The notes: a model not told the origin generated them from the letters alone. DNA of 64,000 nt from an uncultured Gammaproteobacteria bacterium (GCA_964540825.1 CAZINT010000003.1:147250-211249); one strand, 5' to 3'. Positions 15,527 through 30,462 are shown, counted from the stretch's first letter. Made by a program: numbers and translations.

Positions 15527-15610
15527 GCCCAGATGGCGGAACTGGTAGACGCACGGGACTCAAAATCCCGCGATGGCGACATCATGAGAGTTCGATTCTC
15601 TCTCTGGGCA
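15527..15610 (+). tRNA. tRNA-Leu (anticodon CAA), long variable arm
   Basis: Acceptor GCCCAGA/TCTGGGC, anticodon loop CTCAAAA, long variable arm, T-arm GAGAG-TTCGATT-CTCTC, discriminator A. Confidence 0.85.
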
Positions 15611-15656
15611 CTAAACTAAATACAGCTCCTCACAACGGGAGCTGTATTTAGTTTAG
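15611..15656 (+). terminator. Perfect 19-bp-stem hairpin immediately 3' of tRNA-Leu
   Basis: ctaaactaaatacagctcc / ggagctgtatttagtttag with an 8-nt loop, followed by TTCT. Confidence 0.5.
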
Positions 15657-15766
15657 TTCTAAAAAAGAATCGAACCAAGGGTGGTAGGGAAAGCATTCCC
15701 CTACATCCTGAGGAAGGCACACGGAAACCCGCTGGTTGCCGTGAAGGAGCAAAGCGACACGTGAGC

Positions 15767-15782
15767 TTCTCTCTCTGGGCAC
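15767..15782 (+). repeat. Direct repeat of the 3' 16 nt of tRNA-Leu (attR-like integration scar)
   Basis: ttctctctctgggcac is identical to 15596..15611 (T-loop end, T-stem, acceptor 3' strand, discriminator). Confidence 0.6.
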
Positions 15783-15808
15783 ATACGAAATTTCTCTTGT
15801 TTTGTTGC

Positions 15809-15837
15809 ACCTTAAAACACTCCGTCAATGGAGTGTT
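15809..15837 (+). terminator. Rho-independent terminator
   Basis: aaaacactcc-gtcaat-ggagtgtttttt. Confidence 0.6.
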
Positions 15838-15998
15838 TTTTGACTGCTTACACACACTTAATCCCATGCTTAACGCTCATCAAGTCTTGACAAAACGAGA
15901 AATGTATCCCAGTATACGCGCACCAGAAAGTAGCGCGCACTAGATGCGCGCCTGGCCCTGTCTGCAGTGGTTTCTAAAAGAAGAGTGGGAGGATGCCT

Positions 15999-16355
15999 AT
16001 GCGATGGCTTGGAATTTTGTTTTTAGTAGCTGGCTGCGAGGCGAGCCAGCCAGCGCAGCCCGAGGCGCGAGACGGCGGCGCGACCGCCGACCTTGTCCAC
16101 CACCCTCGCTCCGATGGAGGCGTTGCCTGCACTCTAGCAGCGCCTCAAGACTGCCGCCTCGTCCTTGAGGGACCGAACTGGTGCTGCCCTGAGAGCGCGC
16201 TCTGCGGCGGCAGCGTGGGAGCGTGCGAGCCGTGCCCGTCCATGCGGGGGCTGCGCGAGCACGAGTCCGGACCAGGGCTCTGCTACAACCAGATCTGCTG
16301 CCCGAGCGGCCGCTCGTGTGCGGTATCCGGGCCAGGCCAGTACTTCTGCAACTGA
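15999..16355 (+). CDS. Hypothetical cysteine-rich lipoprotein (G+C-rich block)
   Basis: SD GGGAGG 6 nt before ATG 15999; MRWLGILFLVAGC lipobox signal peptide; 11 more Cys in about 105 aa (CC, CxxC pairs). Confidence 0.45.
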   Translation: MRWLGILFLVAGCEASQPAQPEARDGGATADLVHHPRSDGGVACTLAAPQDCRLVLEGPNWCCPESALCGGSVGACEPCPSMRGLREHESGPGLCYNQICCPSGRSCAVSGPGQYFCN

Positions 16356-16553
16356 CACCCCTCCTCGTTCAGCCGTTCTCTTCCCTCCTCCGGATGGCAG
16401 CCGCACCCCGATCGCTTGCCCTCCGTTCAGTGTCTAGACTTTTTGTAGGTACTGAACGCAAGCGGTCCTCTCAACAGCCTCTTACCTGGGGCTGTTTTGT
16501 TTTCTCGTTATTAACAAAAAATTATGCTATACTGAACACACTTTTATCACTGT

Positions 16554-17510
16554 ATGAATGTCTACCTGATTATTTTGTACGGCTATTTCTTGGTTGCCGG
16601 CGTACTTATCTATTTTTTTAACCGTGATCGCCAAAATCCGGCTGTTTTCCTAGGACAGCACCGCTCGCTCGCCTGGATACTTATGGGCGTACTCGTCTTT
16701 GGCATCATTTGCGGCGTTGATGCCCGGTTTATTGAAATCAATCGCCTTGTCGTGCATGAGGAAACTGTTGCTACACCTGATATAACCAAACCCATCCGCA
16801 TTGCCTTCATTGGTGATCTGCATGTAGGCGGCAACAAAAAAACCGCTTGGACACAAAAAGTAGTCAACAAAATTATCGAGCAAAAACCCGATCTCGTTAT
16901 TATCGGCGGGGACAGCGTCTATAATCATGGCGGAAATTTGGACGAAAGCGAATACCTGGAACCGCTGCGCGAATTACCAAAACATTTTCCTACGTACTAT
17001 GTTATGGGTAATCATGAATATGGTTATGCCGATCTGGGGTTTCAAGAAAATGCGGACCAATCAGCCGCGGTGATGCAAAAAATGAATGATATGGGACTCG
17101 TGCTCCTTAAAAATCAGTTAGGATGCCCGAAGGTGGGCAGTGAACGAGTATGCCTCTATGGAATTGATGACGTGTATCGTAATCAGGTTAGTTTTGACGA
17201 AGTGACCAAATGGAATAAAACTGCACCTTTAATTTTAGTTACTCACAATCCTGACGGTATACTCGCGTGGCCCGACGCAACTTCTGTGCCAGCTCTTACC
17301 CTCGCCGCACATACCCACGGCGGACAAATCTGGCTGCCGTTTATCGGCCCTCTTGGGCGTGTCCCGGTCCGCTTGGGCACGAAGTATTATCGCGGACTGA
17401 ACGACTATAATGGCCTGAAGATTTTTACCACTGTTGGCGTAAGCGAATCGGGCGGGCCGATTAGATTTTTGACACCGCCCGAAATTGCGATTATTACACT
17501 CGCACCGTAA
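16554..17510 (+). CDS. Membrane-anchored metallophosphoesterase (calcineurin-like, YkuE-type)
   Basis: 318 aa; two N-terminal TM helices, GDLH..GN..GNHE..H..GH metal-binding motifs; extended -10 tgcTATACT upstream. Confidence 0.8.
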   Translation: MNVYLIILYGYFLVAGVLIYFFNRDRQNPAVFLGQHRSLAWILMGVLVFGIICGVDARFIEINRLVVHEETVATPDITKPIRIAFIGDLHVGGNKKTAWTQKVVNKIIEQKPDLVIIGGDSVYNHGGNLDESEYLEPLRELPKHFPTYYVMGNHEYGYADLGFQENADQSAAVMQKMNDMGLVLLKNQLGCPKVGSERVCLYGIDDVYRNQVSFDEVTKWNKTAPLILVTHNPDGILAWPDATSVPALTLAAHTHGGQIWLPFIGPLGRVPVRLGTKYYRGLNDYNGLKIFTTVGVSESGGPIRFLTPPEIAIITLAP

Positions 17511-17513
17511 ATT

Positions 17514-17548
17514 AAAAATACCTCGATTTTATCGAGGTATTTTTTACG
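17514..17548 (+). terminator. Rho-independent terminator
   Basis: aaaaatacctcgat-ttt-atcgaggtatttttt. Confidence 0.75.
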
Positions 17549-17625
17549 CTCAGTTAGTCTTTAACCACGAAAACCAAAAAATAAATACCCGTTTTTTACA
17601 CTTCTTCTTACAAATATTATTACAA

Positions 17626-17690
17626 GAAAAAGTGAAAGACCCACGAATGGGTCAGGCGGAGGATGACCGGCCGAAGCCAGGGTCATCCAC
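17626..17690 (-). terminator. Conserved family terminator cassette (two hairpins) 3' of gene 17716..18933
   Basis: Coding-sense CCTGAC-GACCCATTCGTGGGTC-TTTCACTTTTTC preceded by hairpin GGATGACC..GGTCATCC; identical copy at 23903..23965. Confidence 0.55.
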
Positions 17691-18090
17691 CTGGGGGTGG
17701 AAGGTACGTTCGGCGCTACCGAGGCAGCGCGGGCGAGAGAAGGAGGGGCGCGGTCGGAGCAGCCGGTCCGACGAGCTGCCAGATACTGTTTCCGATCTGC
17801 ACCCAGTACGAGCCGGCGGGGGCGCCGGCGGGAAGGGTTGCAGTGTAGGCGCTGCTCAGGGCAACGACGTCGAGGGCGACCATGCCTCCGGCGACGATCG
17901 CTCCAACAGCGAGGAGGCCGGCGAGCGTAGCTCTGCCGTTCGAGCCGTCCGGCGAGATGTAGTCCGGGCGGCCGCCCGGACCGATGACGAGACCCCTTCT
18001 TCGAGCAGCTGTTACATCCCCGAACATGCTGCCGGGGCCACTCCAGATGCGGACGGTCTGGGGGGTGGGGGTGGTGGGAGGGGTGGGGGT
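17635..18090. repeat. About 455-bp direct repeat copy 1 (pairs with 23911..24376)
   Basis: Essentially identical for about 325 bp then about 90% identical; covers the C-terminal module plus terminator of two paralogous genes. Confidence 0.85.
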
Positions 18091-18933
18091 GAGAGGAGGA
18101 TACCCCATTTGTTCCGGGCTGGGGAGAGGGCCATAGGTCCCATTGTAGCGCGGCCCACCTGGCGGCGGCGGAATCAGCGGAGTTGGGTTACCAGGACTCC
18201 AGACCCCCGAACCGGGCTGTCCGGGCTGCGGGCCAGTTTGGAAAAAGGCTTGCGGCCCGGTTCCAGGCCTGATTCCTGCCGGCGGCGGGAGCGGTGGCGG
18301 GAGTGGCAGCGGAGCTCCGGGTGCCCGATAACCCCCTGGTGGCAAGAGTCTGCCTCCGGGGGCTTGGTACCGCAGGCCGCCCGAGGGCGGATCGCCCCCC
18401 GGACAAGGCGGCTGCCCGAGTCCGCCACAGAAACGCGCACCAAGGATGCCGAGCGCTGCAGCAGCAGGAACTAGCAGGTTCAACGGTGAAAGTGTGCCTG
18501 GTGCGGCGAGCGGAGCAAGATCGGCGCCTTTTAGATCAAGGTGGTAGTGGTACTTCTCGAGGGCGTCCTGCATCTTCTCGATATCCATTTCGGGGTGGCG
18601 CGAAAGATAGTCGCGCACAGCTTCGGAGCCGATATGCCTGATCAGATTAGCCCGCGCAAGACGAGGAATCGAGCCCCACTCCTCAGGGGTATACCTATGC
18701 GGGGTCTCGATGTAGTCCGTTAGTCCGCACACCGGACAGTGCCCCTGGGGCTTGATGCGAACCAGCGGTGGCACTTCGAACACCATCACAGTGGCATCTG
18801 GCATGATCTCGGCAGGTGGCTGGCCGGCCTCGCGCATGCCCTCGTGGTTACAAATATGGGGCTGGTAGGCAAAGGCCCGCACGCTGGCGAACCAGCACAG
18901 CAGCATCACGGCCAATGTCACAATTCTTTTCAC
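17716..18933 (-). CDS. Secreted modular protein, type-A C-terminal module (unique Cys/His N-domain + Pro/Gly-rich linker)
   Basis: GTG start with perfect SD AGGAGGTGA; signal peptide MKRIVTLAVMLLCWFASVRAFA; PPLPPP/TPTPPTTPTP linkers; hydrophobic C-terminus GLLAVGAIVAGGMVALDVVAL...WQLVGP. Confidence 0.7.
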   Translation of the reverse strand: MKRIVTLAVMLLCWFASVRAFAYQPHICNHEGMREAGQPPAEIMPDATVMVFEVPPLVRIKPQGHCPVCGLTDYIETPHRYTPEEWGSIPRLARANLIRHIGSEAVRDYLSRHPEMDIEKMQDALEKYHYHLDLKGADLAPLAAPGTLSPLNLLVPAAAALGILGARFCGGLGQPPCPGGDPPSGGLRYQAPGGRLLPPGGYRAPGAPLPLPPPLPPPAGIRPGTGPQAFFQTGPQPGQPGSGVWSPGNPTPLIPPPPGGPRYNGTYGPLPSPEQMGYPPLTPTPPTTPTPQTVRIWSGPGSMFGDVTAARRRGLVIGPGGRPDYISPDGSNGRATLAGLLAVGAIVAGGMVALDVVALSSAYTATLPAGAPAGSYWVQIGNSIWQLVGPAAPTAPLLLSPALPR

Positions 18934-19222
18934 AGATCACCTCCTGCTCGCCACGGCGAGCGTCGTTGTTTGATACCCTGAACAGAGTGCCGCCTCAAAC
19001 CAATAAGGCTGCTCCCACATGTCGTTCTTCTTTCCTCCTTTTTTAAAAATCAATCCAGTGACCAAGTACTTCCTGATCGCTAGAATATTATTTTAAAATA
19101 AGTATTTTTTATATTTTCACCCCTCTCGTTCAAAGTCAGTGGTTCCTTGTTTGTTTCCTAAGCATAAGAAACAAAGTGAGGGCGACTTTGAACGAGAGAA
19201 GAATTTGCAAGCCGCCCGGTTG

Positions 19223-20203
19223 TCAGTGCTGACGATCACGCCGCGGCTGACCGGAGATCAGCATCTGATAGAGCTGCCGTGCTCTGGCTCGCCAGTACTG
19301 CTCACGCTGCGCACGGAAAAGCGGACGGTTGATATTACTTGGCTGGCTGCCAGTGTTAGGGTGGTGGTACTGGTAACCAATGGGTCCGCGGTGGATATGC
19401 CGCGGCAGCTCAACCAGCGGACTTCCCTGCCGCTGACCATCGTGATGTAGCTCGACCGGTTTGCCAAAAAACTTGTCGAGCGGGGGTGAGCCGTTGGCCA
19501 TGAGGAGCAAGTTGAACAAGTTCATCTCGTAGTAGAGACCGGCCCAGCCCTGATGCCGGAACGGCGCTGACCCATCGGAATTGAACTGGTTGCGGAGTGC
19601 CTGATAACTCATGTCGAGGACACCAGTCATCGTAGTCCCCACAAAAGGTGGCTGCGCGTCTTCTTCAGCTGCCACATAGTAACAAGTCTCGTCGACTGGT
19701 GTTCCTGGAGCAAAGAACGACTGGTTTCCCAGCGATTGTCCGGGCAACACGAGGCCACGACCTTGCGGCATCGGCTCGCCAAAAGCAGGAGCGCTGCCAG
19801 GTATCCCCGGCAAACGAAGCGGGCCAACGAGCGGCTGACCGGGCAACTGGAGTGTTTGGGGGCCACCAGGCAGACCTGGTCCACTCAAACCGCCGCCACC
19901 TTCCACTGCCGGACCGGAAACCGGCGGAAGCGGCAACCGCTGACCAGGGCCAGGGCCTCCAACCGGTCCGATAGTGTCAGTTCGCTGCCCGGTCGGAAGA
20001 TTCGGAAGATATTCGCCGACAAGTGGCGAAGCTGGCGCTCCACCACCCAGTGGCGGAAGCCCGGGCGCACCACGCCCCGGAATACGGAACGCAGGCGGCG
20101 GGAATCCTCGTTGGATGACCTGAGCCCTTACCGCATAGGGCGTAAAGAGCGCCACCGCACAGACGAGCACTGCAAGACACGATCGCAAACACCTGAATGG
20201 CAT
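19223..20203 (-). CDS. Secreted Pro/Gly-rich protein with a unique C-terminal globular domain
   Basis: SD AAGGAGG; signal peptide MPFRCLRSCLAVLVCAVALFTPYAVRA; long PG-rich linker; its own long inverted-repeat terminator at 19121..19192. Confidence 0.65.
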   Translation of the reverse strand: MPFRCLRSCLAVLVCAVALFTPYAVRAQVIQRGFPPPAFRIPGRGAPGLPPLGGGAPASPLVGEYLPNLPTGQRTDTIGPVGGPGPGQRLPLPPVSGPAVEGGGGLSGPGLPGGPQTLQLPGQPLVGPLRLPGIPGSAPAFGEPMPQGRGLVLPGQSLGNQSFFAPGTPVDETCYYVAAEEDAQPPFVGTTMTGVLDMSYQALRNQFNSDGSAPFRHQGWAGLYYEMNLFNLLLMANGSPPLDKFFGKPVELHHDGQRQGSPLVELPRHIHRGPIGYQYHHPNTGSQPSNINRPLFRAQREQYWRARARQLYQMLISGQPRRDRQH

Positions 20204-20313
20204 GTACAGCCTCCTTATGAGTTACTATTCAAGCAGACACTTTTTTCACAATGCTTCAATTTTCCCTACATCATACTTTCCCCTCCCTCCCCACTCCAAG
20301 AAATATTCTTGAC

Positions 20314-20341
20314 GTCGGAAGGAAGACTCGCGAAGCGAGTC
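20314..20341 (-). terminator. Conserved family terminator (GACTCGC-gaa-GCGAGTC + TTCCTTCC)
   Basis: Same CCTG-GACTC-loop-GAGTC-TTC motif as the other five cassette terminators. Confidence 0.5.
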
Positions 20342-20374
20342 AGGATGATCAATGAGCGGAGGCGGGTTCTCCCC

Positions 20375-21334
20375 TTACTGCAGCAGTGGCAGCAGGAGCC
20401 CGGGGGGCCTTGTGCCGGGTAGGACTGGGAGACCGGGCCCCGAGGGCGGCAGGCGCAGCGGGCCTAGCGGGAGGGTGGCAGTGGGGGTGAGAAGCACCGC
20501 TCCAGCAGCGGCAGCAGCAGGGATCAGTCGATAGGCCTGTTTGGTCGCAGCGTCGACCACTGCCAGGCAGCGTCCCGGAACTGCAGCACAGGCGGTACCG
20601 ACGACGGCGACAGCTTGAGCCGTGTAGTAGGCTCCGACCAAGATGACGATGCCGCCTGAGACGAGTGCGCCGTTGACGGCGACCTGGAGGGGGGTCTCCG
20701 GGTAGCCGCCGAAGGCTCCTCCGCCGTCGGGGACCCAGCCGCGGAGGCCGCCAAGGGGATTTTGACCAAAGGCTCCGGGGGTGGGATAGGCAGGCAGGAG
20801 ACCGCGATTGAGCTGCCCATCAGGGACACCCAGCGGTCGCCAGCCTTTGTATGCAGCCTGCGGCGCCTGCACACGAGCAGGCCCACGTGGCGTATCATTG
20901 CACTCCAAACTCCCGACAGTCGGAATGGCGTTGCCTTGGCATACCATTGGTCCGGGTATACCCTGAACACTGAAGAGGGAGACACCGGGGAACATGGAGC
21001 GAATCATAGATTCATTTCCATCCTGCATACTGTAGGGGTAAAGTGTAAGGCGCCACACTCCCACGCCGAAGTCTCCGGTCTCCACGTCCCGAACATAGCA
21101 GTGATCAGCGGCACCGGGCCGTTGGCGCCAGAGCTGCCAATGACCGTGCTCCGGCGGGCTGCCGTTCACCCGACTGGTCCGAAGCAAATAGAAGTTTGGC
21201 CCGGGGAAAACCAGCACCACCACGTTGCAGACCACCATAATATCCCTATTGTCAGGTGGCGGAACTGCTTGTGCGAGTGGTGGCTGACTGGCCAGCGCCA
21301 ACAGCAGCAAGGCTATCATTTTCAACCAACGCAT
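20375..21334 (-). CDS. Secreted modular protein, type-B C-terminal module
   Basis: Start at internal Met MRWLKMIALLLLALASQPPLAQA (signal peptide, SD AAGGAAGG); C-terminal module PLQVAVNGALVSGGIVILVGAYY..GTACAAVPGRCL..LIPAAAAAGAVLLTP + Leu/Pro tail. Confidence 0.65.
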   Translation of the reverse strand: MRWLKMIALLLLALASQPPLAQAVPPPDNRDIMVVCNVVVLVFPGPNFYLLRTSRVNGSPPEHGHWQLWRQRPGAADHCYVRDVETGDFGVGVWRLTLYPYSMQDGNESMIRSMFPGVSLFSVQGIPGPMVCQGNAIPTVGSLECNDTPRGPARVQAPQAAYKGWRPLGVPDGQLNRGLLPAYPTPGAFGQNPLGGLRGWVPDGGGAFGGYPETPLQVAVNGALVSGGIVILVGAYYTAQAVAVVGTACAAVPGRCLAVVDAATKQAYRLIPAAAAAGAVLLTPTATLPLGPLRLPPSGPGLPVLPGTRPPGLLLPLLQ

Positions 21335-21657
21335 GCGTTTGTCCTTCCTTTTGTGATGTCTACGAGTTTGCCGACCGCCGGCACACTTTTCTCCTCTCCC
21401 GAAAAACATGTTTATATTTTTCGGGAGAGAAATAAATTCAAACATTCTCATCGTGAATATAATGAGAATAAGTACATGTTCAAATTTTTCCTTTAGTGAT
21501 ACTCACAAGCGTAAGTATTCAACACAGGAGCCGAAGAGTGTCGGCTGCACCTAGTTACTTTTTTCTTAATCTACCTACGACCACCACCTGACTCGCATCA
21601 GGTGGTGGTCGTCCCCTCCTGTGAATCCGGTCTCACGCGCCGGCGACGGTTGGATTG

Positions 21658-23385
21658 CTATCGGCGATAGGCGAAGCCGAACTCCGGAAGGACGGTGAAG
21701 CTCTCACGAGAGTAGCCCGTCGTCTGGCTTGGCATGACGAGCACCACGTTGTCCGGATTGGACCGATCGACTACCGGCTCTCCAGTCACGAGTTCGCCAG
21801 TTGACCGCAGGTACCCGACGGTAGCAGCAGCAAAGAAACCGAACTGGCGACGAATACCGCTCTTGCCCAGGTAGACCTCGATCGATGGCTTGAACCCCAG
21901 CAAGAAGTACTTCTTCGAAGAATCGCCCTTCTGACGGAACTCTTCGTCTGACAGGTCATGACCGCCACCGCCGATGACAACCCCGAGATCGATAGCAACA
22001 TTTGGACTGGGGTTATAAGAATACCCTCCGTACCCGACAGCAGCGACATCATTCCTGCCTGAGAGCTGCAGGCTCAGACCTCCACAGATGGCGTTGTTGC
22101 TCAGCTGGTTGTGAAAGAAACAGAACTTGCCGCCCAGATTTCCACCAAGCGCACCCTCGCGATTCAGCTCGTAGCGAAAGAGTCCGCCCCCGTAGAGCGT
22201 CATCATGAAGTTGCTGTCACCCCGGTCCGCCTGGATCAGGGCCCGCTGAGCGCCGATAGCACCGGTGCAGTATTGGGCGACCTGGATGGGATCGAAATTC
22301 TCGCCGCCGGCCACGTTCCGACGCACCCACCGCTCGCAATCCTTCGCGCTGCTGAACTCCGGGGGGTTGGCGGGGTTGCCGGTGAGCGGCCGGCTACCGA
22401 CCTGAGCCTGAGGCAGTGTTGCTCCGGGCGGCTGAGCAGTCTGGGGGTTGCAGTAGGCATTCACCCCCTCTGGGGTGTTCTGCGCGGCGGTCCCGACCGC
22501 CTTGAGATACTCCCAGGTCTTGGCCACGCAGTCGGGGCTGCCCGGCTGCGGCTGCTGGGGTGCCTGACCCTGGATGCGCGGAGCCAGCTGGTGGGCCTGC
22601 GCCGTGAGCGTCTGGCACGTGGCGTCCTTCCCCTGAGGGTCGTGCTGGTAACAGCAGCCCACTACCATGCCCTTGTTTGAGAAGCACTGCTGCAGGTTGC
22701 CTCCCAGGCTGGCATCGGCCACACGTGCGACCCGGCACAGGGAAACGTTTGCCGACTCGGCAGGGAAAGAGTCGCAGCAGGCCCGCACTCGCTCGTTGAC
22801 GGCCTGAGGGGTATTGTAGCTTGCGTCCGCGGTTGGTGATGGGGCGGTCGTCTGGGCGAGACACGTCTCGAGGAGCTGAGCGGGCGGAACAGCCGCAGGC
22901 CCCGCGGTGAGGGGGGCGCCCGCCGTGCCCGGCAGGGGCGCCGGAGGGGCGGACTGCGGAGCCACAGGAGGGGCAGCCGCAGGGGCGGGGGCGGCTGGCG
23001 TGGAGGCGACGGCGACGGGCGGCGACGTACTGCTCAGCTGAGTGACAGCACCGCTCGCCTGCTGGCACAGGCTCCTGAAGAGGCGGCCGTTCGGCGTGTT
23101 GGTCTGCTGAGCAAGGTGGTTTGACCAGCAGCAATTCTGGGTTCCGCGCCAATAAGCCGCCAAGTCCTTGCTCTTGTCCGGGACCACCGTCAGGCAGCCC
23201 TTCATGGCAGCAACCGATGCGTCGATCATCTCCCGTGAGGGCGGGCCAGCTACTTGCGCTGTGGGGGCGCTGGGCTGGCTGCTGGCCGCCGGCTTGGCAT
23301 CGGCGTTGGCGTGCAGTGGCGCGAGCCACAGCAAGAGTAGCGTCAGCAAAGCCGCTGACAGGCACGAAAACTTGGATCGTGACAT
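21658..23385 (-). CDS. Secreted Cys-rich repeat protein with a Gly/aromatic-rich beta-type C-terminal domain
   Basis: Start at MSRSKFSCLSAALLTLLLLWLAPLHANA with SD AAGGAGG; three or more C..CC..C repeats separated by Ala/Pro linkers; C-terminal about 200 aa with alternating hydrophobic/Gly/aromatic pattern ending FGFAYRR. Confidence 0.65.
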   Translation of the reverse strand: MSRSKFSCLSAALLTLLLLWLAPLHANADAKPAASSQPSAPTAQVAGPPSREMIDASVAAMKGCLTVVPDKSKDLAAYWRGTQNCCWSNHLAQQTNTPNGRLFRSLCQQASGAVTQLSSTSPPVAVASTPAAPAPAAAPPVAPQSAPPAPLPGTAGAPLTAGPAAVPPAQLLETCLAQTTAPSPTADASYNTPQAVNERVRACCDSFPAESANVSLCRVARVADASLGGNLQQCFSNKGMVVGCCYQHDPQGKDATCQTLTAQAHQLAPRIQGQAPQQPQPGSPDCVAKTWEYLKAVGTAAQNTPEGVNAYCNPQTAQPPGATLPQAQVGSRPLTGNPANPPEFSSAKDCERWVRRNVAGGENFDPIQVAQYCTGAIGAQRALIQADRGDSNFMMTLYGGGLFRYELNREGALGGNLGGKFCFFHNQLSNNAICGGLSLQLSGRNDVAAVGYGGYSYNPSPNVAIDLGVVIGGGGHDLSDEEFRQKGDSSKKYFLLGFKPSIEVYLGKSGIRRQFGFFAAATVGYLRSTGELVTGEPVVDRSNPDNVVLVMPSQTTGYSRESFTVLPEFGFAYRR

Positions 23386-23817
23386 TGGACGGACCTCCTT
23401 GCCCACTCTGGGCAATGACTGATGGTTTCAATCTTTTTCAATCAGTGGGCAGCCACTTTGGCCGCCATGATGAATACGATATCCCCCATTCAGCTAAGAC
23501 AAATAGGCTCTCTACCGGTCTTAATTGAATGGGGGAATTTTTCTAATTATTTTTTAAATGAACACACACTGTATTCGTCCTTATTTGTCAGACAGTCTAA
23601 CAATCTAAAATTGCTCTGGGTAAAGGACAATGTTTTTCAGAGCAAAACGAGTAGTACCACATTTTGGCCGAAACGTCAATATAGGTTGAGGTTTTTGTAT
23701 CCACAGATCAAATTAGGTCTTTTTTAGCTAAAAAAATAATCTTTTATCGTGATTACCGCCTCCTCCCGGGATTCAAGCTGTAGTTACATTTCTTTTTTAA
23801 ACTGAAATATCTATACT

Positions 23818-23848
23818 TAAAAAACTTACTTAAAAAGTAAGTTTTTTA
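23818..23848. terminator. Perfect bidirectional hairpin terminator
   Basis: aaaaaacttactt-aaaaa-gtaagtttttt. Confidence 0.6.
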
Positions 23849-23902
23849 GCGAATATTCAGCATCTTTTTCTTTCTTGAACTCCAAGATACATGCTTAGAA
23901 TA

Positions 23903-23965
23903 CCAGAAAGAAAGACCCACGAATGGGTCAGGCGGAGGATGACCGGCCGAAGCCAGGGTCATCCA
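23903..23965 (-). terminator. Conserved family terminator cassette, copy identical to 17626..17690
   Basis: GACCCACGAATGGGTC hairpin plus upstream GGATGACC..GGTCATCC hairpin. Confidence 0.55.
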
Positions 23966-24376
23966 CCTGGGGGTGGAAGGTACGTTCGGCGCTACCGAGG
24001 CAGCGCGGGCGAGAGAAGGAGGGGCGCGGTCGGAGCAGCCGGTCCGACGAGCTGCCAGATACTGTTTCCGATCTGCACCCAGTACGAGCCGGCGGGGGCG
24101 CCGGCGGGAAGGGTTGCAGTGTAGGCGCTGCTCAGGGCAACGACGTCGAGGGCGACCATGCCTCCGGCGACGATCGCTCCAACAGCGAGGAGGCCGGCGA
24201 GCGTAGCTCTGCCGTTCGAGCCGTCCGGCGACATGTAGTCCGGGCGGCCGCCCGGACCGATGATGAGACCCTTTCTTCGAGCGGCTGTTACATCTGCGAA
24301 CACCCAATCGGTCCAACTGCCCCTACCACTCCAGACGCGGACGGTCTGAGGGGTGGGGGTGGTGGGAGGGGTGGGA
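23911..24376. repeat. About 455-bp direct repeat copy 2 (pairs with 17635..18090)
   Basis: See copy 1. Confidence 0.85.
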
Positions 24377-24975
24377 GATTGGCCAGGCTGTTGAAGCCCC
24401 ATTCCCGGTCCTTGTAGGCCTGGGAGCGGGCTGGGGGGCGGCGGGTATGTAGGAAGACGAAGCGGACCGGGGGCAGGGGTGTATTGGCCAGGGAGGGGCA
24501 GACCCGGAGGTTGGCCTTGAGGGCCGGATGGCGTTCCCATCATCATCTTCAGACCGGGCGGATAGTACCGCCCACCCGCTTCAAATACGGTTGGCCCCGA
24601 GGGAGTAGCCTGTATGTACATGGGCGCTCGGGGCGCCGGGTGATCCGGTCCTTGGCCACGCCTGCCATAGCAGGGGTCCTGGGGGTTTTCAGCATTACCA
24701 AAGATCACTTTGTTTTCCGTGATCTGCTGAGCGAGCCGCTGAGAATCGAGGGCATCAAGACTAAACCGATTAACAAAAAATTCCTCGTGCAGACGATTTT
24801 GCACCGCCGACTCTCGGTAGTCCCGTTTGACAATGGACTGGTCGGGGCAGATGTAAAACTGAATAAATATCGGCCGCCCATCCGGCCCCGTCGGGAACAG
24901 CTGAGCGCCGCCTTGTCCGGCCAGAACAAAAAAGAACACTGTCGCGAGAACTACTGTTGCTACTATTCGCGTCAT
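23992..24975 (-). CDS. Secreted modular protein, type-A C-terminal module (different N-domain from 17716..18933)
   Basis: SD AAAGGAGT; signal peptide MTRIVATVVLATVFFFVLAGQGGAQ; C-terminal 110 aa identical to gene 17716..18933. Confidence 0.7.
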   Translation of the reverse strand: MTRIVATVVLATVFFFVLAGQGGAQLFPTGPDGRPIFIQFYICPDQSIVKRDYRESAVQNRLHEEFFVNRFSLDALDSQRLAQQITENKVIFGNAENPQDPCYGRRGQGPDHPAPRAPMYIQATPSGPTVFEAGGRYYPPGLKMMMGTPSGPQGQPPGLPLPGQYTPAPGPLRLPTYPPPPSPLPGLQGPGMGLQQPGQSPTPPTTPTPQTVRVWSGRGSWTDWVFADVTAARRKGLIIGPGGRPDYMSPDGSNGRATLAGLLAVGAIVAGGMVALDVVALSSAYTATLPAGAPAGSYWVQIGNSIWQLVGPAAPTAPLLLSPALPR

Positions 24976-25056
24976 GACGTTGTTACTCCTTTCATGACTG
25001 ACCTAAGACCACTTTGGTGCTTTATTTTTCTCCTTTTCTGGTTTATAAAAAAACCA

Positions 25057-25085
25057 ACTAAACTGTCCTCCAAGAAACATGTCAA
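25057..25085 (-). promoter_or_regulatory. Sigma70-like promoter TTGACA-N17-TTTAGT for gene 23992..24975
   Basis: Hexamers read on the minus strand in the AT-rich spacer. Confidence 0.4.
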
Positions 25086-25167
25086 TTGGTTTTTCTAAAA
25101 AATAATTTTAAATGCATTAAAACAAATATTTTACTTTCCCTTTTCTCACCAGAACACCAAAGTTCCA

Positions 25168-25198
25168 AAGGAAAAAAGGAAGACTCGGCGAGCGAGTC
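25168..25198 (-). terminator. Conserved family terminator (GACTCG-gcgag-CGAGTC + TTCCTTTTTTCC)
   Basis: Same motif class as the other cassette terminators. Confidence 0.5.
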
Positions 25199-25241
25199 GA
25201 GGCAGGAAGTTCAAAGAGCAGCAGACAGCTGCCGGGTACGT

Positions 25242-26333
25242 CTAGCGGAGCAACGGAGCCGCTGGAAGGTACAATGACGCTGCCGGTTTCGCCAGCTGCC
25301 AACCCAAGTTGCCAACCTTGATCCAGATGGATCCGAGCGGAGCGCCCGGTGGCAGTGTTGTTGTGACGGCAGCATCAAGCGCTACCCATTCGAGAGCGAC
25401 GAGGCCGGCAGCCACAACTGATCCGACAGCGAAGAAGCCAACCAGACTGCCTTGGGCGTCTTGCGCCGGATCTCGCGATCCGAGTTCGGGTCCAAAGGGA
25501 CCCCAACGAACACCCCCGGCTCTGGCCTCTTGTTGGCCCTGAAGCCCTTGTCTGAAGGCAGAGAGAAGACCACTACTTACTCCACGGTAGATGCGGAGGC
25601 CGAGGTTGGATGGGGGTGGTAGCTGAAGCGTAGAAGGAGTGCCGGGAAGTGCCGGGGTGGTAAGCTGGGGTGGGAGGCGGAGTGGAGACGCAGGTTGTGC
25701 AAAAACGAGTTCACCACTTGGTGTTGGCGCTCGAAAAAATACCGGTCCACGCCGAGGCAGCGTTTCAGCTACAGGATTTTCTTGTCCGGAAGTCTGGGGT
25801 CCGCGCGGACGGCAATCCCCCACTTTATGTTTTTGGTTACAGGAATTATGTAGACCCCACATCTCCCGAACACCACTCGGATAGTTCCAGTACAGAATCG
25901 AGTACTCGCTTCGAGGCGGACCAAGCACCGGAGCGAGCCCGGCGATATCATCGTCGTTCAAACGGAAGTACTGATCCCCTTTGTATCCTTGGCGCTCTTC
26001 GCGCTCCCCCGGACCAAAAAGATCACGCTGACGCTGCCACCGATAGAGCCAGGTGGTGTCGACCGAGCTCTGCACCTTGTACCACCAACCGCTTGCGCTG
26101 CAGAACCCTTCGATGATGTAGTGAGCCTTTTGACCCGCCCATGGGTCGACGGTTCTTCCCAGCGGCCCGACCTCATGGCCGATTCGGAACTGAATAAGGG
26201 TCGGGTGGTTACAGTGCGGACACAGCGTGCTCGCTTCCGGCTGATGGACGATCTTGGGGTCTTTCTGCCCCCATGCGATAGACGGGCTTGCGAGAAGCCC
26301 GACAAAATAGAGTGCAAGCCAGAACAGTTTCAT
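25242..26333 (-). CDS. Secreted modular protein, divergent type-A C-terminal module
   Basis: SD GGAGGT; signal peptide MKLFWLALYFVGLLASPSIAWGQ; Cys-containing N-domain; C-terminus LVGFFAVGSVVAAGLVALEWVAL..TLPPGAPLGSIWIKVGNLGWQL. Confidence 0.7.
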   Translation of the reverse strand: MKLFWLALYFVGLLASPSIAWGQKDPKIVHQPEASTLCPHCNHPTLIQFRIGHEVGPLGRTVDPWAGQKAHYIIEGFCSASGWWYKVQSSVDTTWLYRWQRQRDLFGPGEREERQGYKGDQYFRLNDDDIAGLAPVLGPPRSEYSILYWNYPSGVREMWGLHNSCNQKHKVGDCRPRGPQTSGQENPVAETLPRRGPVFFRAPTPSGELVFAQPASPLRLPPQLTTPALPGTPSTLQLPPPSNLGLRIYRGVSSGLLSAFRQGLQGQQEARAGGVRWGPFGPELGSRDPAQDAQGSLVGFFAVGSVVAAGLVALEWVALDAAVTTTLPPGAPLGSIWIKVGNLGWQLAKPAASLYLPAAPLLR

Positions 26334-26463
26334 TGAGTACCTCCAACGATGTATAAAATACTTACATAAAGAAGCGTGTGTGTCAATCTAGTTACAAAAA
26401 CCGTCTCGTAATTTTTAGGCAACCACCAGTTCTTTTCCTTCCCTATCTAAGAACAACTTCTTA

Positions 26464-26493
26464 AAGAGAGAAAGAAGACTCAGAAATGAGTCT
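26464..26493 (-). terminator. Conserved family terminator (AGACTCA-gaaa-TGAGTCT + TTCTTTCTCTC)
   Basis: Same motif class. Confidence 0.5.
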
Positions 26494-26543
26494 TGGCGGG
26501 AAGGACAAGGAACATGAGGCGGGCGTGACAAGTACTCACAAGC

Positions 26544-27434
26544 CTACGGCATCCAGAGAGGGGGCGGAGCGGACGGAAGGAGGAGTGGACGCGAAGGTTT
26601 GGCGTCCATCACGGGTGTCAGTACCGTTGCCCCTAGCGAAGCGACTCCGAACACGGGAACCAGACGCCAGATCTGACGAGTAAGGGCATCTTGGACGAGC
26701 TTGCAGCTCGCGGGACTACTCAGACAGGCGCTAGCAAGCACGGTCGCACTCTGGACGAGGTAGACTGACCCATAGTAGACCACGAAACCGCCTGCGATGA
26801 TGGCGCCACCGGCTACGACTTGGGTAGGAGTCACCGGATAGCCGCTGACACCTCCCCCGTCGCCGGGTGACCAGGTGCTGCCAGGCGGAGCGAGGATAAG
26901 GGCGCGCGGGGTGGGGTGGGTGGGATAGGCAGGCGGCTGCGGACCACCCGGGAGGGGTGGGGGCAGGACGGGCGGTGGCGGAGTTGGAAGGGGTGGGGGC
27001 AGGGCAGGCGGCGTAGGGGCGGCGGGTGGCCGGATATTCGGCGCCAGCGGAGCGAGTCCGAACGAGGGCAGGCGTGGAGGGCCAACGAGCACATGTTCGG
27101 CCTCCCCGGGTCTGGGGCGAGCGTAGCGCACCCTGCCATCCGGACCGATCTCGATGACAGGCTGCAAAGCACCGGGCGGCACCGGAGCACCCGGTTCCGC
27201 GGGCTTGACGCCATTTCCCTCGAGCCAACGATCTCCCAAAGACTGCTTGGACGGGACCTCCACCAGCTTCCCATCCTTCCATTCGAAAGCCGGGCCGCCG
27301 CCTCCTGGCTTCGGCGGATCACTCCCTGGCGGCGAGGCATAGGCGAAACGGATCCATAGCACGTTCCAGATTTGATCCGGTCTGACCAGACCAAGCGCGA
27401 CACAACTCAGAATACACAGCAGCAATCGTTGCAT
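26544..27434 (-). CDS. Secreted modular protein, type-B C-terminal module, extremely Pro-rich N-region
   Basis: Start at MQRLLLCILSCVALGL with SD AAGGAGGTG; PPALPPPLPTPPPPVLPPPLPGG linker; C-terminal module VTPTQVVAGGAIIAGGFVVYYG...ASACLSSPASCKL...LGATVLTP. Confidence 0.65.
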   Translation of the reverse strand: MQRLLLCILSCVALGLVRPDQIWNVLWIRFAYASPPGSDPPKPGGGGPAFEWKDGKLVEVPSKQSLGDRWLEGNGVKPAEPGAPVPPGALQPVIEIGPDGRVRYARPRPGEAEHVLVGPPRLPSFGLAPLAPNIRPPAAPTPPALPPPLPTPPPPVLPPPLPGGPQPPAYPTHPTPRALILAPPGSTWSPGDGGGVSGYPVTPTQVVAGGAIIAGGFVVYYGSVYLVQSATVLASACLSSPASCKLVQDALTRQIWRLVPVFGVASLGATVLTPVMDAKPSRPLLLPSAPPPLWMP

Positions 27435-27662
27435 GCGCACCTCCTTTTCAAAAACGTTTTTGGAACAACCTTGCACTGACACAACTGTAGCGGTGCACAA
27501 CTAGCATTTTTACCGCTAGTCATGCCGACTGATTTCAGTTGAGCAGCAGCATTGTGTAGTACACAAAAAATGTGCAATTGTCAAACACATACTCGACTAC
27601 CGCTACCCATAGCTCGCGAAGCTGTTAAATTCACGAACACACACTTTTTCATATCTTTAAAA

Positions 27663-27700
27663 ACTCCTGCAAAAGAAATGCTGCAGGAGTTTTTTTAATC
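27663..27700. terminator. Perfect bidirectional hairpin terminator
   Basis: aaaaactcctgca-aaagaaatg-ctgcaggagttttttt. Confidence 0.65.
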
Positions 27701-27748
27701 GACGGCCAAATTGTATATTCTTTCTTTTCTCCCAAAATTTTTCTTAGG

Positions 27749-27779
27749 AGCAGAGAAAGAAGACTCAATGAATGAGTCT
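27749..27779 (-). terminator. Conserved family terminator (AGACTCA-atgaa-TGAGTCT + TTCTTTCTCTGC)
   Basis: Same motif class. Confidence 0.5.
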
Positions 27780-27823
27780 CGGCAGGTGAATCAAAGAGCG
27801 ATGGGCAGGTTGTGGTTCAAAAC

Positions 27824-28903
27824 CTACGGCAGGCGCAGTTGCTGCGGCCGAGGCGTTCCGGGGAGGAGCGGGAGGCTCAGGCCAGGTGTAGGTAAGCGCA
27901 GTTGCCCGGGGGGAGGAGCAGTGACGGGGGTGAGTATCACCGCTCCTAGAGCGGCAGTGCCAGCGGCCGGAATGAGATTCCAGACCTGCCGGGTGGCCAC
28001 ATCGATCACCTTCAGGCACCTTGCTGGAGCAGCAGCACAGGCTGTGCCAATCGCAGCGGCAGCCTCAACAACGTAGAATGCTCCAAGAAAGCCGACAATA
28101 GCACCGGCTGCAATGGCGCCGTTAACAGCGACTTGGGTTGGAGTTTCGAACGAAGGGATAGGTCCTCCAGCGCCATCGGTCAATACCAACCCGCTACCGG
28201 GTGGATGGAGGCGGAGGGCTTCAGAGGAAGGGTAGAGAGGAGTCAAAGCAGGCTGCGGCGCAAGCAAGCCGGGCTGCGGCACCGCTTCGCGCCTTAAGCC
28301 CAGCACACGTTTCCACAAAGGCGCCTGCGCCGCCTCAAATTGCTGCTGCTCCTGCACATCCCCTTCTCCGGGGCACCGCAGCGCTTCCCACCGGAGGTTT
28401 GCGGGCGGATATACGCCTGACTCACAAAAATTCAACGATAACAAGTGAGACATTTCTATATCCTTCCACCAACTATTAGGGTCCAGCGTCAGCCTACGCA
28501 GCGGCTTGGGGTTGTATACAACCCACTGATTGGGCGTTTCTGGCGACACCAGTTCACCCATTATCTCGTGATCATCTTCTGTTCGCGGCGAAATGTGCCT
28601 TGTAGCACCAACCCGCACCGGGATGTCACCAATCTTGCAAAATCGAGCTGGGCCGGCTTGCAGCGCACCACCATACTTTTTCCAGAGCACCCAGACCTGT
28701 TGCACACCTGTGTCAAGACTATTCTTTTTGACCGCAACAAATTCCCTGCCCTGTTTGACCAACCCCAGGTCGAACGTGAGTCGGTAAAAATGGATTATGT
28801 TGCACTGGGCCGGCTCAAAGGGAGCCTGTGCAAAAGCTGCCTTCGATATTCCCAGCACGACACATATCAACAAAAGAGCACGAAAATACACAGGCAAGGA
28901 CAT
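27824..28903 (-). CDS. Secreted modular protein, type-B C-terminal module (about 170-aa unique N-domain)
   Basis: SD GAGGTGAT; signal peptide MSLPVYFRALLLICVVLGISKAAFAQA; C-terminus ETPTQVAVNGAIAAGAIVGFLGAFYVVEAAAAIGTACAAAPARCLKVIDVATRQVWNLIPAAGTAALGAVILTP + LP-rich tail. Confidence 0.7.
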   Translation of the reverse strand: MSLPVYFRALLLICVVLGISKAAFAQAPFEPAQCNIIHFYRLTFDLGLVKQGREFVAVKKNSLDTGVQQVWVLWKKYGGALQAGPARFCKIGDIPVRVGATRHISPRTEDDHEIMGELVSPETPNQWVVYNPKPLRRLTLDPNSWWKDIEMSHLLSLNFCESGVYPPANLRWEALRCPGEGDVQEQQQFEAAQAPLWKRVLGLRREAVPQPGLLAPQPALTPLYPSSEALRLHPPGSGLVLTDGAGGPIPSFETPTQVAVNGAIAAGAIVGFLGAFYVVEAAAAIGTACAAAPARCLKVIDVATRQVWNLIPAAGTAALGAVILTPVTAPPPGQLRLPTPGLSLPLLPGTPRPQQLRLP

Positions 28904-28978
28904 GGATCACCTCGTTTAATCGTCTGAGCAAAACAGTTACACATACAACCAAAATTGTCAATAGTTTTGAGGTAATTA

Positions 28979-29013
28979 AAAGACTCCTACCGCAAAAATC
29001 TTGTAGGAGTCCA
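28979..29013 (-). terminator. Terminator of asnS
   Basis: gactcctac-cgcaaaaatctt-gtaggagtc followed on the minus strand by TTTTAATT. Confidence 0.5.
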
Positions 29014-29051
29014 CTAATAAATTATAAGCAAAACCAGTTTTTTTCGCTCTT

Positions 29052-30347
29052 TTACGGCTTCAACCGTCCAATCGTTCTGGGGAACGGAATACACTCTCGA
29101 ATATGCTCTACCCCGCAAACCCAGCGCACGGCGCGCTCTAAGCCGATACCAAAACCTGAATGCGGCACGCTGCCATAACGTCGCAAATCCAAATACCATT
29201 CGTAATCTTCCATATTCAAACCTTCGTGTTTAATACGTTCAATCAATAAATCAACATTGTCCTCACGCTGCGATCCGCCAATCAACTCTCCCCCGCCTTC
29301 GGTAGCAATAAGATCGTCATTCAAAACGAGTTCAGGGTTTACGCTATCGCGTTTCATGTAAAAAGGCTTGATACTCTTCGGCCATTTTTCGATAAAGACC
29401 GGCACCACACTATCTTTCGTGAGCAGCCCCTCATCATCGTTACCAAGGTCTTCACCGTATTTAATATCCGAACCCAGTTCGTTCAATTTTACAATCGCCT
29501 GATCATATGTGTAGCGCGTGAATGGCGCATCTACCGCCGCCAGTTTCGCTGTATCACGCTCAAGAATAGCGAGTTCTGCTTTACAGTGATCCAAACAATA
29601 GCGCACGATCGCGCGAACAAGTCCTTCTTGAATTTGTAAATTTTCTTCATGCTCCACAAATGCAGCTTCCGCATCCATCATCCAAAATTCAGTCAGGTGG
29701 CGTTTGGTTTTACTCTTTTCCGCGCGAAATACCGGGCCAAAATCATAACACCGTCCCACCGAAGCAATCGCGGCTTCAATATATAATTGGCCCGACTGCG
29801 AAAGATAGGCTGTGCCAAGATCAAAATACGGAACAGGAAAAAGGGTCGTTGTTCCTTCACAAGCGTTCGGGGTAAAAATCGGGCTGTCGGCTTTGATAAA
29901 ATTCTGTTCGTGCAGATACTGATTGATCGCCATGATAATCGCGTCGCGCACACGCAGAATCGCCCATTGCTGTTTACTGCGCAGCCACAAGTGACGATTG
30001 TCCATCAGGAAATCCGGGCCATGTTCTTTTTTAGCAATCGGAAAATCTGTGGCCAACTGAATAATCGTGACATCTTTTACTTCAAGTTCATATTGATCTG
30101 GTTTTTTGGGGTGCTGCTTCACAAGACCCGTCACGGTAAGTGACGATTCTTGATTCAATGATTCGATCGCTGTCCACACCGTTTCGGAAACGCCGCTTTT
30201 TGAGGCCACTGCCGAGAGCCAACCAAAACCATCGCGAATTTCAAGGAAAGCAATTGATCCCGACGATCGTTTGTTGTAGAGCCACCCGCGCACGGTTACT
30301 TCTTGACCAACCATTTCACCGATATTTTTAGATAAACAGATAGACAT
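29052..30347 (-). CDS. asnS: Asparaginyl-tRNA synthetase (class IIb aaRS)
   Basis: N-terminal OB anticodon-binding fold, class II motifs (FRAE, GGGELIGGSQRE, GFGIGLER); start placed at MSICLSK to avoid overlap with the divergent gene; 432-aa size fits AsnRS rather than AspRS/LysRS. Confidence 0.8.
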   Translation of the reverse strand: MSICLSKNIGEMVGQEVTVRGWLYNKRSSGSIAFLEIRDGFGWLSAVASKSGVSETVWTAIESLNQESSLTVTGLVKQHPKKPDQYELEVKDVTIIQLATDFPIAKKEHGPDFLMDNRHLWLRSKQQWAILRVRDAIIMAINQYLHEQNFIKADSPIFTPNACEGTTTLFPVPYFDLGTAYLSQSGQLYIEAAIASVGRCYDFGPVFRAEKSKTKRHLTEFWMMDAEAAFVEHEENLQIQEGLVRAIVRYCLDHCKAELAILERDTAKLAAVDAPFTRYTYDQAIVKLNELGSDIKYGEDLGNDDEGLLTKDSVVPVFIEKWPKSIKPFYMKRDSVNPELVLNDDLIATEGGGELIGGSQREDNVDLLIERIKHEGLNMEDYEWYLDLRRYGSVPHSGFGIGLERAVRWVCGVEHIRECIPFPRTIGRLKP

Positions 30348-30462
30348 AAACATTTTTAAAAGCTTTTCTAGCGTAGCTGTTTTTAGCCAAAAAGGCAAGT
30401 GGAAAAGAGAGTTGCAAAAAATACGCGTCACTGTATACTCGACTCAGAATGGAGGGTCCACA

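Follow-up and report, generated by a model that had tools for sequence, protein, structure and literature searches.

A narrow family of modular exported proteins in Candidatus Magasanikbacteria and a candidate gene conversion between two of its members

Concerted evolution through non-allelic gene conversion is a familiar feature of bacterial surface-protein families, with Neisseria opa and Anaplasma msp2/p44 among the examples. The subject here is an array of eight genes within a 64,000-nucleotide stretch of DNA (CAZINT010000003.1:147250-211249; henceforth the window, from whose first letter all positions are counted) belonging to a member of Candidatus Magasanikbacteria, within the candidate phyla radiation (CPR, or Patescibacteria). 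Six of the eight genes encode modular proteins that share a homologous C-terminal unit, referred to as the C-module, and two of these six, A1_17716 and A1_23992, carry a direct repeat across their 3′ ends. The array is best described, in a reading that we hold to be probable rather than certain, as a paralogous family of C-terminally anchored surface proteins in which one recent non-allelic gene conversion lies atop an older transfer of a 3′ segment. The recombination event itself, a gene conversion between paralogues, is routine, and its value lies in the setting, namely a delimited CPR accessory island, an eight-member family, a modular plan and an adjoining nuclease toxin.

Like opa and msp2/p44, the array consists of clustered paralogues for exported proteins, contains tracts of perfect identity within diverged genes and offers conserved segments as potential recombination substrates. 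Unlike those families, only one pair has exchanged, there are no pseudogene or silent donors, the portion that has been homogenised is the constant, presumed membrane-proximal tail together with the putative terminator, and there is no sequence homology. The array also differs from cassette systems such as pilE/pilS or vlsE, which pair one expression site with promoterless, partial silent cassettes, in that all six copies here are complete genes.

An analogous protein architecture is provided by phytoplasma VmpA and Amp and by the Spiroplasma ScARPs, which follow the same anchored plan; the phytoplasma proteins have conserved ends and a variable external portion. Within the CPR, PamC, PamD and PamR are Sec substrates that a C-terminal transmembrane helix retains in the membrane (bioRxiv 10.64898/2026.03.03.709456). 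The modular proteins share with this trio a signal peptide at the N-terminus, a functional or variable domain outside the cytoplasm and one strongly hydrophobic C-terminal segment, but depart from it, and from VmpA, in the 45-75 conserved residues that follow the helix, in the second hydrophobic segment of type-B modules, in the long Pro-rich stalk with its L-x-L-P motifs and in the lack of any sequence similarity. Judged by hydropathy, all six fit the plan of a C-terminally anchored Sec substrate, which denotes a functional class rather than a homology family and in which membrane insertion is predicted.

The C-terminal sorting signals of the sortase (LPXTG), PEP-CTERM and PGF-CTERM types invite a further comparison. 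As in those systems, variable exported N-terminal domains are joined through a Pro-rich spacer to a conserved C-terminal hydrophobic segment that recurs in many proteins of one genome. In contrast to them, no conserved motif precedes the helix, and the 45-75 conserved residues stand in place of a short basic tail. A sortase-type signal was therefore rejected on the lack of an LPXTG-like motif before the helix, the length of the sequence behind it and the absence of an NCBIfam match.

The direct repeat and its two-phase divergence

An earlier note on this DNA had described the repeat as about 325 bp of identity followed by about 130 bp at about 90%. Pairwise alignment of the two copies, the check that it proposed, confirmed this two-phase structure as 322 bp at 100% and approximately 132 bp at 89%, the latter with a 12-bp indel:

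17634..17955, minus strand: repeat copy 1, 100%-identical core, comprising the last 80 codons (including the stop) of A1_17716 and 82 nt of 3′ untranslated region (UTR); from the alignments
23910..24231, minus strand: repeat copy 2, 100%-identical core, comprising the last 80 codons (including the stop) of A1_23992 and 82 nt of 3′ UTR; from the alignments and from a contig, L001, that ends exactly at 23910
17956..18087, minus strand: older homology, copy 1, 89% identical to 24232-24375 minus 12 bp, encoding the last part of the stalk (PTPPTTPTPQTVR...) and what precedes the hydrophobic helix; from local alignment
24232..24375, minus strand: older homology, copy 2; from local alignment

Read in the sense of the genes (minus strand), local alignment detects similarity from 18087/24375, within the sequence encoding PTPPTTPTPQTVR. 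The first 144 alignment columns contain 14 substitutions and one 12-bp indel (89% identity over 132 aligned bases), and the subsequent 322 columns (17955 to 17634 and 24231 to 23910) are free of differences. Repeat finding, MAFFT and local alignment agree on this identical core, the repeat finder alone reporting a perfect 300-nt direct repeat (17634-17933 and 23910-24209) together with a 59-nt piece at 90%. Similarity ends abruptly after ...TGGGTCTTTC, 82 nt beyond the stop codons at 17716 and 23992. The repeat as a whole contains approximately 124-128 codons, for which the earlier figure of about 110 was slightly low, in addition to the stop codon and 82 nt of 3′ UTR in which two hairpins lie.

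All 14 substitutions fall within the first 132 of the 454 aligned bases. Were divergence uniform, the chance of this would be about (132/454)^14, or approximately 3e-8, and therefore the 5′ and 3′ parts of the repeat differ in history. In the 89% segment, the majority of substitutions alter the encoded amino acid, and the two proteins differ there at 8 residues. The substitutions are of several kinds, not adenine-specific, and occur alongside the 12-bp indel. A diversity-generating retroelement, which the earlier note had already discounted, is rejected on these features and on the lack of a reverse transcriptase domain among 30 Pfam-scanned open reading frames (ORFs) drawn from the island, both flanks and other large ORFs.

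The source of the window is a metagenome-assembled genome, and a 322-bp exact repeat exceeds a typical short read, both of which would leave room for an assembly artefact, either diverged copies collapsed to a consensus or a spurious duplication. Independent assemblies of two runs argue strongly otherwise. Logan contigs of SRR11567520 span window positions 15584-17663, 17958-23939 and 24234-29751, and one of SRR11567528 spans 23910-26223, each 100% identical to the window, so that all four unique flanks are reproduced; one contig follows copy 2 as far as the distal edge. The contigs stop at the repeat edges or approximately 30 nt (one k-mer) inside them, as expected for a real, exact two-copy repeat with four unique flanks. 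These independent short-read assemblies confirm that the repeat is real and no quirk of one assembler, and an artefact of either kind is exceedingly unlikely.

The C-module family and its 3′ hairpins

The eight genes of the array, named here by module type and position, are as follows:

17716..18933, minus strand: A1_17716, 405 aa from a GTG at 18933 with GGAGG 7 nt upstream; signal peptide, unique head, Pro-rich stalk and type-A1 C-module
19223..20203, minus strand: the LHH gene, 326 aa; Sec signal, Pro-rich linker with L-x-L-P motifs and predicted C-terminal LHH (HNH/EndoVII) nuclease toxin domain (Pfam PF14411, E 2.1e-14), without a C-module
20375..21334, minus strand: B_20375, 319 aa; signal peptide, unique head and type-B C-module
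21658..23385, minus strand: the 21658 gene, 575 aa; secreted Cys/Ala/Pro-rich protein with a β-rich C-terminal region (low-confidence model), without a C-module and with its own strong 16-bp terminator hairpin
23992..24975, minus strand: A1_23992, 327 aa; signal peptide, head homologous to that of the database protein P0008, stalk and type-A1 C-module
25242..26333, minus strand: A2_25242, 363 aa; signal peptide, unique head and type-A2 C-module
26544..27434, minus strand: B_26544, 296 aa; signal peptide, short head, long Pro-rich stalk and type-B C-module
27824..28903, minus strand: B_27824, 359 aa; signal peptide, unique head and type-B C-module

A hydrophobic signal sequence is present at the N-terminus of all eight proteins by hydropathy. 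Each of the eight genes is preceded by a GGAGG-type Shine-Dalgarno sequence and four by a perfect TTGACA −35 box; the upstream regions are otherwise not conserved, and the intergenic regions measure 170-580 bp. P0001 (373 aa), the database entry for gene 17716, begins at an ATG inside the reading frame and does not include the signal peptide (window 18838-18933). Use of the GTG at 18933, with its upstream GGAGG, adds a typical signal peptide, and so the deposited annotation is probably truncated at its N-terminus.

The six C-modules are homologous, types A and B aligning with each other. Their key features are a Gly/Ala-rich hydrophobic helix of approximately 30 residues, a conserved P-x-G/A-x-P...W-x-L-x-P segment in which a short β-hairpin carries the conserved Trp, and a Pro/Leu tail of the PLLLP or LRLP kind. 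In an AlphaFold2 model of A1_23992 (mean predicted local distance difference test score, pLDDT, 46.5), the helix occupies residues 253-287 and the β-hairpin residues 298-310. The modular proteins have hydrophobic segments at both the N- and C-terminus, with 19-residue Kyte-Doolittle peaks of 1.7-2.3, and these exported proteins are probably tethered to the membrane at their C-terminal ends.

The heads, at about 100-190 aa, are unique. BLASTP detects no similarity among those of the modular proteins (E>0.2), and the heads of the two repeat-bearing genes, correctly taken to be unrelated in the earlier note, show none at E>1. The tails themselves are old and have diverged to a considerable extent outside the repeat pair: identity among type-B C-modules is 52-58% at the DNA level, A1 and A2 agree at 54% in protein, and the A types stand about equally far apart in the core module, at 40-54%. 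There is no sign of conversion among these other C-modules.

A HMMER search with the C-module across 1.84 billion representative proteins yielded eight members, comprising the six window proteins, P0007 and P0008. P0007 is encoded on a JGI contig (L004), where an orthologue of the LHH gene comes after this type-A gene, and P0008 derives from an assembly in ENA. Neither the A nor the B module was matched when GTDB genomes, JGI metagenome contigs and IMG/VR were scanned by pattern, and the modular proteins were unmatched in Pfam, NCBIfam, PADLOC, PHROGs and PDB sequences. In word-indexed searches, where low-complexity words were saturating, the full A1 protein retrieved itself and its paralogue, the C-module profile retrieved P0007, and an LHH fragment retrieved nothing, so that even its parent was missed. 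A six-frame hidden Markov model search of the 64 kb found six copies of the module in total and no partial or silent ones. As a family, the C-module proteins are new and confined to very few members; the evolutionary mechanism is a known one.

The L-x-L-P motif (LRLP, LQLP, LLLP) recurs along the stalks, at the very C-terminal ends and within the LHH-toxin linker. There are 17 occurrences in 9 proteins against approximately 5 expected from shuffles, with 4 against 0.56 in the LHH protein, and the motif is conserved in the LHH orthologue on the JGI contig. It may represent a shared docking or processing motif.

Behind each modular gene, 40-65 nt 3′ of the stop codon, is a 6-8-bp hairpin with a T/C-rich tail, referred to as H1:

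17638..17653, minus strand: H1 of A1_17716 (GACCCA-TTCG-TGGGTC), followed by a T/C-rich tail
23914..23929, minus strand: H1 of A1_23992, identical to the hairpin at 17638-17653
20325..20341, minus strand: H1 of B_20375 (GACTCGC-TTC-GCGAGTC)
25182..25198, minus strand: H1 of A2_25242 (GACTCG-CTCGC-CGAGTC)
26475..26494, minus strand: H1 of B_26544 (AAGACTCA-TTTC-TGAGTCTT)
27760..27780, minus strand: H1 of B_27824 (GAGACTCA-TTCAT-TGAGTCTT)

The common architecture that the earlier note had described behind the six modular genes, there as a terminator, is borne out by these elements as a conserved hairpin. The arrangement GACTC-loop-GAGTCTTC occurs exactly four times in 64 kb against 0 expected, every one behind a modular gene, and the A1 pair carries a compensated variant, GACCCA-TTCG-TGGGTC-TTTC. 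The relative on the JGI contig has an H1 of the form GGCTCGCC...GGCGAGCC. Over these seven sequences, the 6-bp stem is 100% paired (42/42 cells), and 3 of its 6 pairs have changes on both sides; the covariation score is reached by no shuffle and collapses in slid registers. As had also been noted, the 3′ ends of genes 19223 and 21658 are of another kind, with hairpins that are longer. A scan with a terminator consensus picked up 5 of the 6 H1 hairpins, with the tail being T/C-mixed (TTCTTTC), although the region overall, at 18 sites against 14.8 expected, is not enriched. H1 looks like the inherited terminator of the family or a stabiliser of its 3′ ends.

A second hairpin, H2, follows H1 in all six 3′ UTRs and in the JGI relative, formed by pairing of the T/C-rich tail with a downstream A/G-rich stretch:

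17590-17637: H2 region of A1_17716
23866-23913: H2 region of A1_23992
20260-20324: H2 region of B_20375
25135-25181: H2 region of A2_25242
26420-26474: H2 region of B_26544
27715-27759: H2 region of B_27824
515-560 of contig L004: H2 region of the JGI relative

Because the repeat ends between H1 and H2, the H2 hairpins of the two A1 copies are built from different sequence, which suggests that selection acts on the structure itself.

Exchange of heads and tails

The two family members outside the window allow heads and tails to be followed separately. P0008 has the head of A1_23992 (45% identity over 125 aa, E 2.5e-29), a relationship that is evident by eye and for which head-only BLASTP was relied upon, as the whole-protein comparison of the two omitted the head alignment. 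The stalk and C-module of P0008 align with A2_25242 over 142 aa and with A1 over just 68 aa. P0008 thus combines a 23992 head with an A2-like tail, and head and tail have therefore been re-associated between lineages. This weakly suggests that the A1 tail of 23992 came from 17716 and replaced an earlier, A2-like one. The predecessor of the LHH gene also differs between lineages, being a type-A gene in the JGI relative and a type-B gene in the window.

Comparison with a strain from SRR12901024 (~98% identical) reveals patchy divergence. In 3.16 kb aligned to one of its contigs (L086 1-3160), 42 of the 45 differences fall in the head of A1_17716 (18441-18819, codons 39-165), where divergence is approximately 11%; 21 of these are synonymous and 21 non-synonymous, with a cluster changing EKYHYH to ERKGYF, and their spectrum is mixed (C>G 9, C>T 9, A>G 8, others). 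Beside this head, B_20375 has 0 differences and the LHH gene 1, the adjacent 2.7 kb differing by ~0.1%. The C-module and hairpins of B_26544 (26418-26824, compared with contig L087) show 26 differences (6.4%) against 8 in the following 1.2 kb (0.66%). The switch lies at ~26418, just past H2 of B_26544, and the strain variants in this C-module are not copied from the B paralogues. These patches look like imported or exchanged tracts that end near module boundaries, and such strain-level mosaicism suggests that the array proteins are under rapid turnover. Gene order and junctions are unchanged in contigs from three runs, one of them of a ~98%-identical strain, these being short-read contigs in which the A1 repeat of the second strain is unspanned.

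Taken as a whole, the array would be an accessory island of eight co-oriented, separately transcribed genes for Sec-exported proteins, in which the helix of the C-module tethers the exported head to the cell membrane and the family presents a variety of heads at the cell surface. H1 would be inherited with the C-module through contiguity. Because the two are 40-65 nt apart, any 3′-end duplication or conversion carries both, with no need for special mobility. In an older event, a 3′ segment of ~455 bp would have been transferred, with junctions in the poly-C/A tract encoding PTPPTTPTP and in the T/C-rich tail after H1, thereby putting an A1-type tail on the 23992 head (possibly in the direction 17716 to 23992). 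A recent non-allelic gene conversion would then have erased all differences over the distal 322 bp.

Alternative histories of the repeat have to be set against this sequence of events. One is a single recent segmental duplication or 3′-end replacement with no later conversion, the 5′ 132 bp simply having evolved faster. The sharp distal boundary, with microhomology only beyond it, is compatible with such a history, and the amino-acid-changing nature of most substitutions in the 89% segment (8 residues) could suggest selection. However, the 82 non-coding nt and about 80 third-codon positions of the core are unchanged beside a segment that is 10.6% diverged and contains an indel, the distribution to which the figure of ~3e-8 applies if divergence is uniform. 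Selection on the protein cannot hold synonymous and UTR sites identical, which counts against a lone duplication with a faster 5′ part and makes it unlikely. It could also be that both loci independently imported the same allele from another strain by homologous recombination, and the patchy strain divergence is typical of imported tracts within the array; however, two identical imports with identical end points would be needed when an intragenomic donor 6.3 kb away is simpler, and this history is quite improbable.

Other explanations would treat the array as a dedicated exchange system. The earlier note had proposed recombinational shuffling of heads and tails by analogy with antigenic variation, the C-module and terminator forming a mobile 3′ cassette. 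In its programmed form, a dedicated cassette would be recombined time and again onto different heads so as to vary the surface. The shuffling itself stands, in the sense that a C-module is shared by unrelated heads, at least one 3′ segment has been transferred, the pair was later homogenised, and the tail of P0008 has been re-associated. It is the programmed character of the exchange that is not supported. One conserved tail on six unrelated heads, one recently homogenised pair, the 6.4% patch over the B_26544 C-module and terminator with its end at ~26418 and the contrast between the ~11% divergence of the 17716 head and its surroundings all speak for it; yet the window contains no silent or partial copies and the exhaustive protein search adds no member from this genome, every copy is a complete gene with its own Shine-Dalgarno sequence and signal peptide (and in four cases the −35 box), the other C-modules have diverged as far as stated above and have strain variants unlike their paralogues, the scanned flanks contain no recombinase, integrase or reverse transcriptase, the same junctions and order recur in the three sequencing runs, and the homogenised part is the constant rather than the variable one. 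Cassette exchange of this kind is thus very doubtful. An integron-like array, whose 3′ hairpins would be attC-type sites, accords with the co-oriented accessory genes, toxin gene included, each ending in an imperfect inverted repeat. However, both sides lack a tyrosine recombinase and consist of housekeeping genes syntenic in relatives, the genes have their own promoter-like sites and the long intergenic regions given above, and RYYYAAC...GTTRRRY core pairs occur twice in the array, which is about chance level (an estimated ~1 per strand), and never behind a modular gene. With no IntI by the array, an integron origin was rejected as scarcely credible.

Several observations weigh against the preferred account of a conversion among anchored surface proteins. 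Beyond the distal end of the identical tract the copies share microhomology only, so that the last event could have been a new replacement from one side instead of a two-sided conversion of the classical kind. P0008 is the only outgroup protein that informs the direction of the older transfer. The structure model of A1_23992 is of low confidence (pLDDT 46), and the second hydrophobic segment of type B, together with the 45-75 residues after the first helix in all types, renders the topology uncertain, such that the module may do more than anchor. In addition, a C interrupts the T-tract after H1, and termination there is consequently not assured.

A broader function can be envisaged, conceivable rather than likely at present, in which the C-module and its L-x-L-P stalk form an undescribed, CPR-specific envelope-anchoring or docking socket for unrelated effector or adhesin heads that contact the host cell. 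Intragenomic and inter-strain recombination below the level of the gene would swap heads and tails at module boundaries, and the 6-11% patches between otherwise ~99.9%-identical strains would be its trace. CPR bacteria are thought to be attached to other cells, and the surface molecules involved are little known. Lineage-specific arrays of surface proteins are candidates for host contact or antagonism, and should the C-module be a true dedicated anchor, it would provide a handle for finding the surface proteome of CPR bacteria.

The accessory island and its other genes

The assignment of the host to Candidatus Magasanikbacteria rests on placement by its asparaginyl-tRNA synthetase (AsnRS), the gene for which also forms one boundary of the island:

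17560..29051, minus strand: the whole eight-gene, GC-rich array, 11.5 kb (synteny in ~30 relatives; composition)
16554-17510, plus strand: metallophosphoesterase, array flank (synteny)
29052-30350, minus strand: AsnRS, array flank (synteny)

The closest relatives have AsnRS and the metallophosphoesterase side by side in convergent orientation, with ParA, ParB and RelA next in line, and the C-module is present in 0 of 80 loci of relatives. The array is a lineage-specific insertion, as indicated by the adjacency of its two flanks in relatives and the lack of the C-module at all of these loci. Housekeeping genes extend outward on both sides, with AsnRS, RecO, Map, Adk and SecY on one and the metallophosphoesterase, ParAB, RelA and TopA on the other. 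No integrase, recombinase, transposase or reverse transcriptase was found in the 30 scanned ORFs or in the left-flank annotation. Comparisons of the whole-array DNA with plasmids, of the B_27824 protein with phages and of the A2_25242 protein with plasmids gave no similarity, and a phage origin was rejected. Rfam identifies two tRNAs and nothing else.

The coding sequences of the array have 54-73% G+C and 0.57-0.75 G+C at third codon positions (GC3), compared with a GC3 of 0.38-0.50 in host genes and a genome at 46% G+C. The spacers within the array have just 34-41% G+C and are thus AT-rich, unlike after a plain horizontal transfer, which leaves the coding-only excess unexplained; possible causes are amino-acid composition, GC-biased conversion or an old transfer followed by uneven amelioration.

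The LHH gene introduces a second type of system into the island. The LHH clade is essentially restricted to polymorphic toxin systems, some of which are Sec-exported (Zhang et al. 2012, PMC3482391). The protein encoded at 19223 matches profile positions 2-76 of 76 of PF14411, contains the ELHH motif and begins with a hydrophobic signal, and is predicted to be a Sec-exported LHH nuclease toxin. As in polymorphic toxins of the Tox-LHH type, a Sec signal, a linker and a C-terminal LHH domain are found together in a variable accessory locus shaped by recombination. Polymorphic toxins keep the N-terminal part constant and swap the C-terminal toxin, with immunity genes and orphan toxin cassettes located downstream (PMC3482391). 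The six modular genes show the reverse polarity, with variable N-terminal heads and a constant C-terminal module. Near 19223, no immunity gene (SUKH-type or other), orphan cassette or second LHH segment was detected, although an unrecognised immunity protein is possible; the gene immediately downstream encodes the exported A1_17716, unmatched in Pfam, NCBIfam and PADLOC.

Elsewhere around the island, a small ORF of 120 aa (15993-16355, plus strand) with 66-68% G+C, a lipoprotein-type signal (LVAGC) and many Cys residues resides between tRNA-Leu/ParA and the metallophosphoesterase. These neighbours are adjacent in several relatives, and the ORF, which has no database match, appears to be a second lineage-specific insertion. 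Other Magasanikbacteria likewise contain lineage-specific ORFs of raised G+C in the spacers around AsnRS, the metallophosphoesterase and ParA, one of them encoding 572 aa at 65% G+C within a locus of 44%:

L037 10866-12584: lineage-specific spacer ORF in a relative
L009 11454-11843: lineage-specific spacer ORF in a relative
L010 11420-12055: lineage-specific spacer ORF in a relative
L008 12453-12917: lineage-specific spacer ORF in a relative

The AsnRS/metallophosphoesterase/ParA site would thus behave as a plasticity hot spot.

The other gene without a C-module, at 21658, encodes a protein with several CC/CxxC segments and a Gly-rich, all-β C-terminal region of 200 aa ending in FGFAYRR. This region is reminiscent of an outer-membrane β-barrel, which would be odd for the CPR, and the AlphaFold2 model (pLDDT 40.6) does not establish the fold. 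Behind the gene is a 139-nt stretch (21517-21655) bounded by RYYYAAC and GTTRRRY, like attC core sites. A near-palindromic, AT-rich sequence, TTTAAAAAATAATTAGAAA, occurs upstream of both 21658 (23540-23563) and 23992 (25089-25112) and may be a shared operator or an UP-like element.

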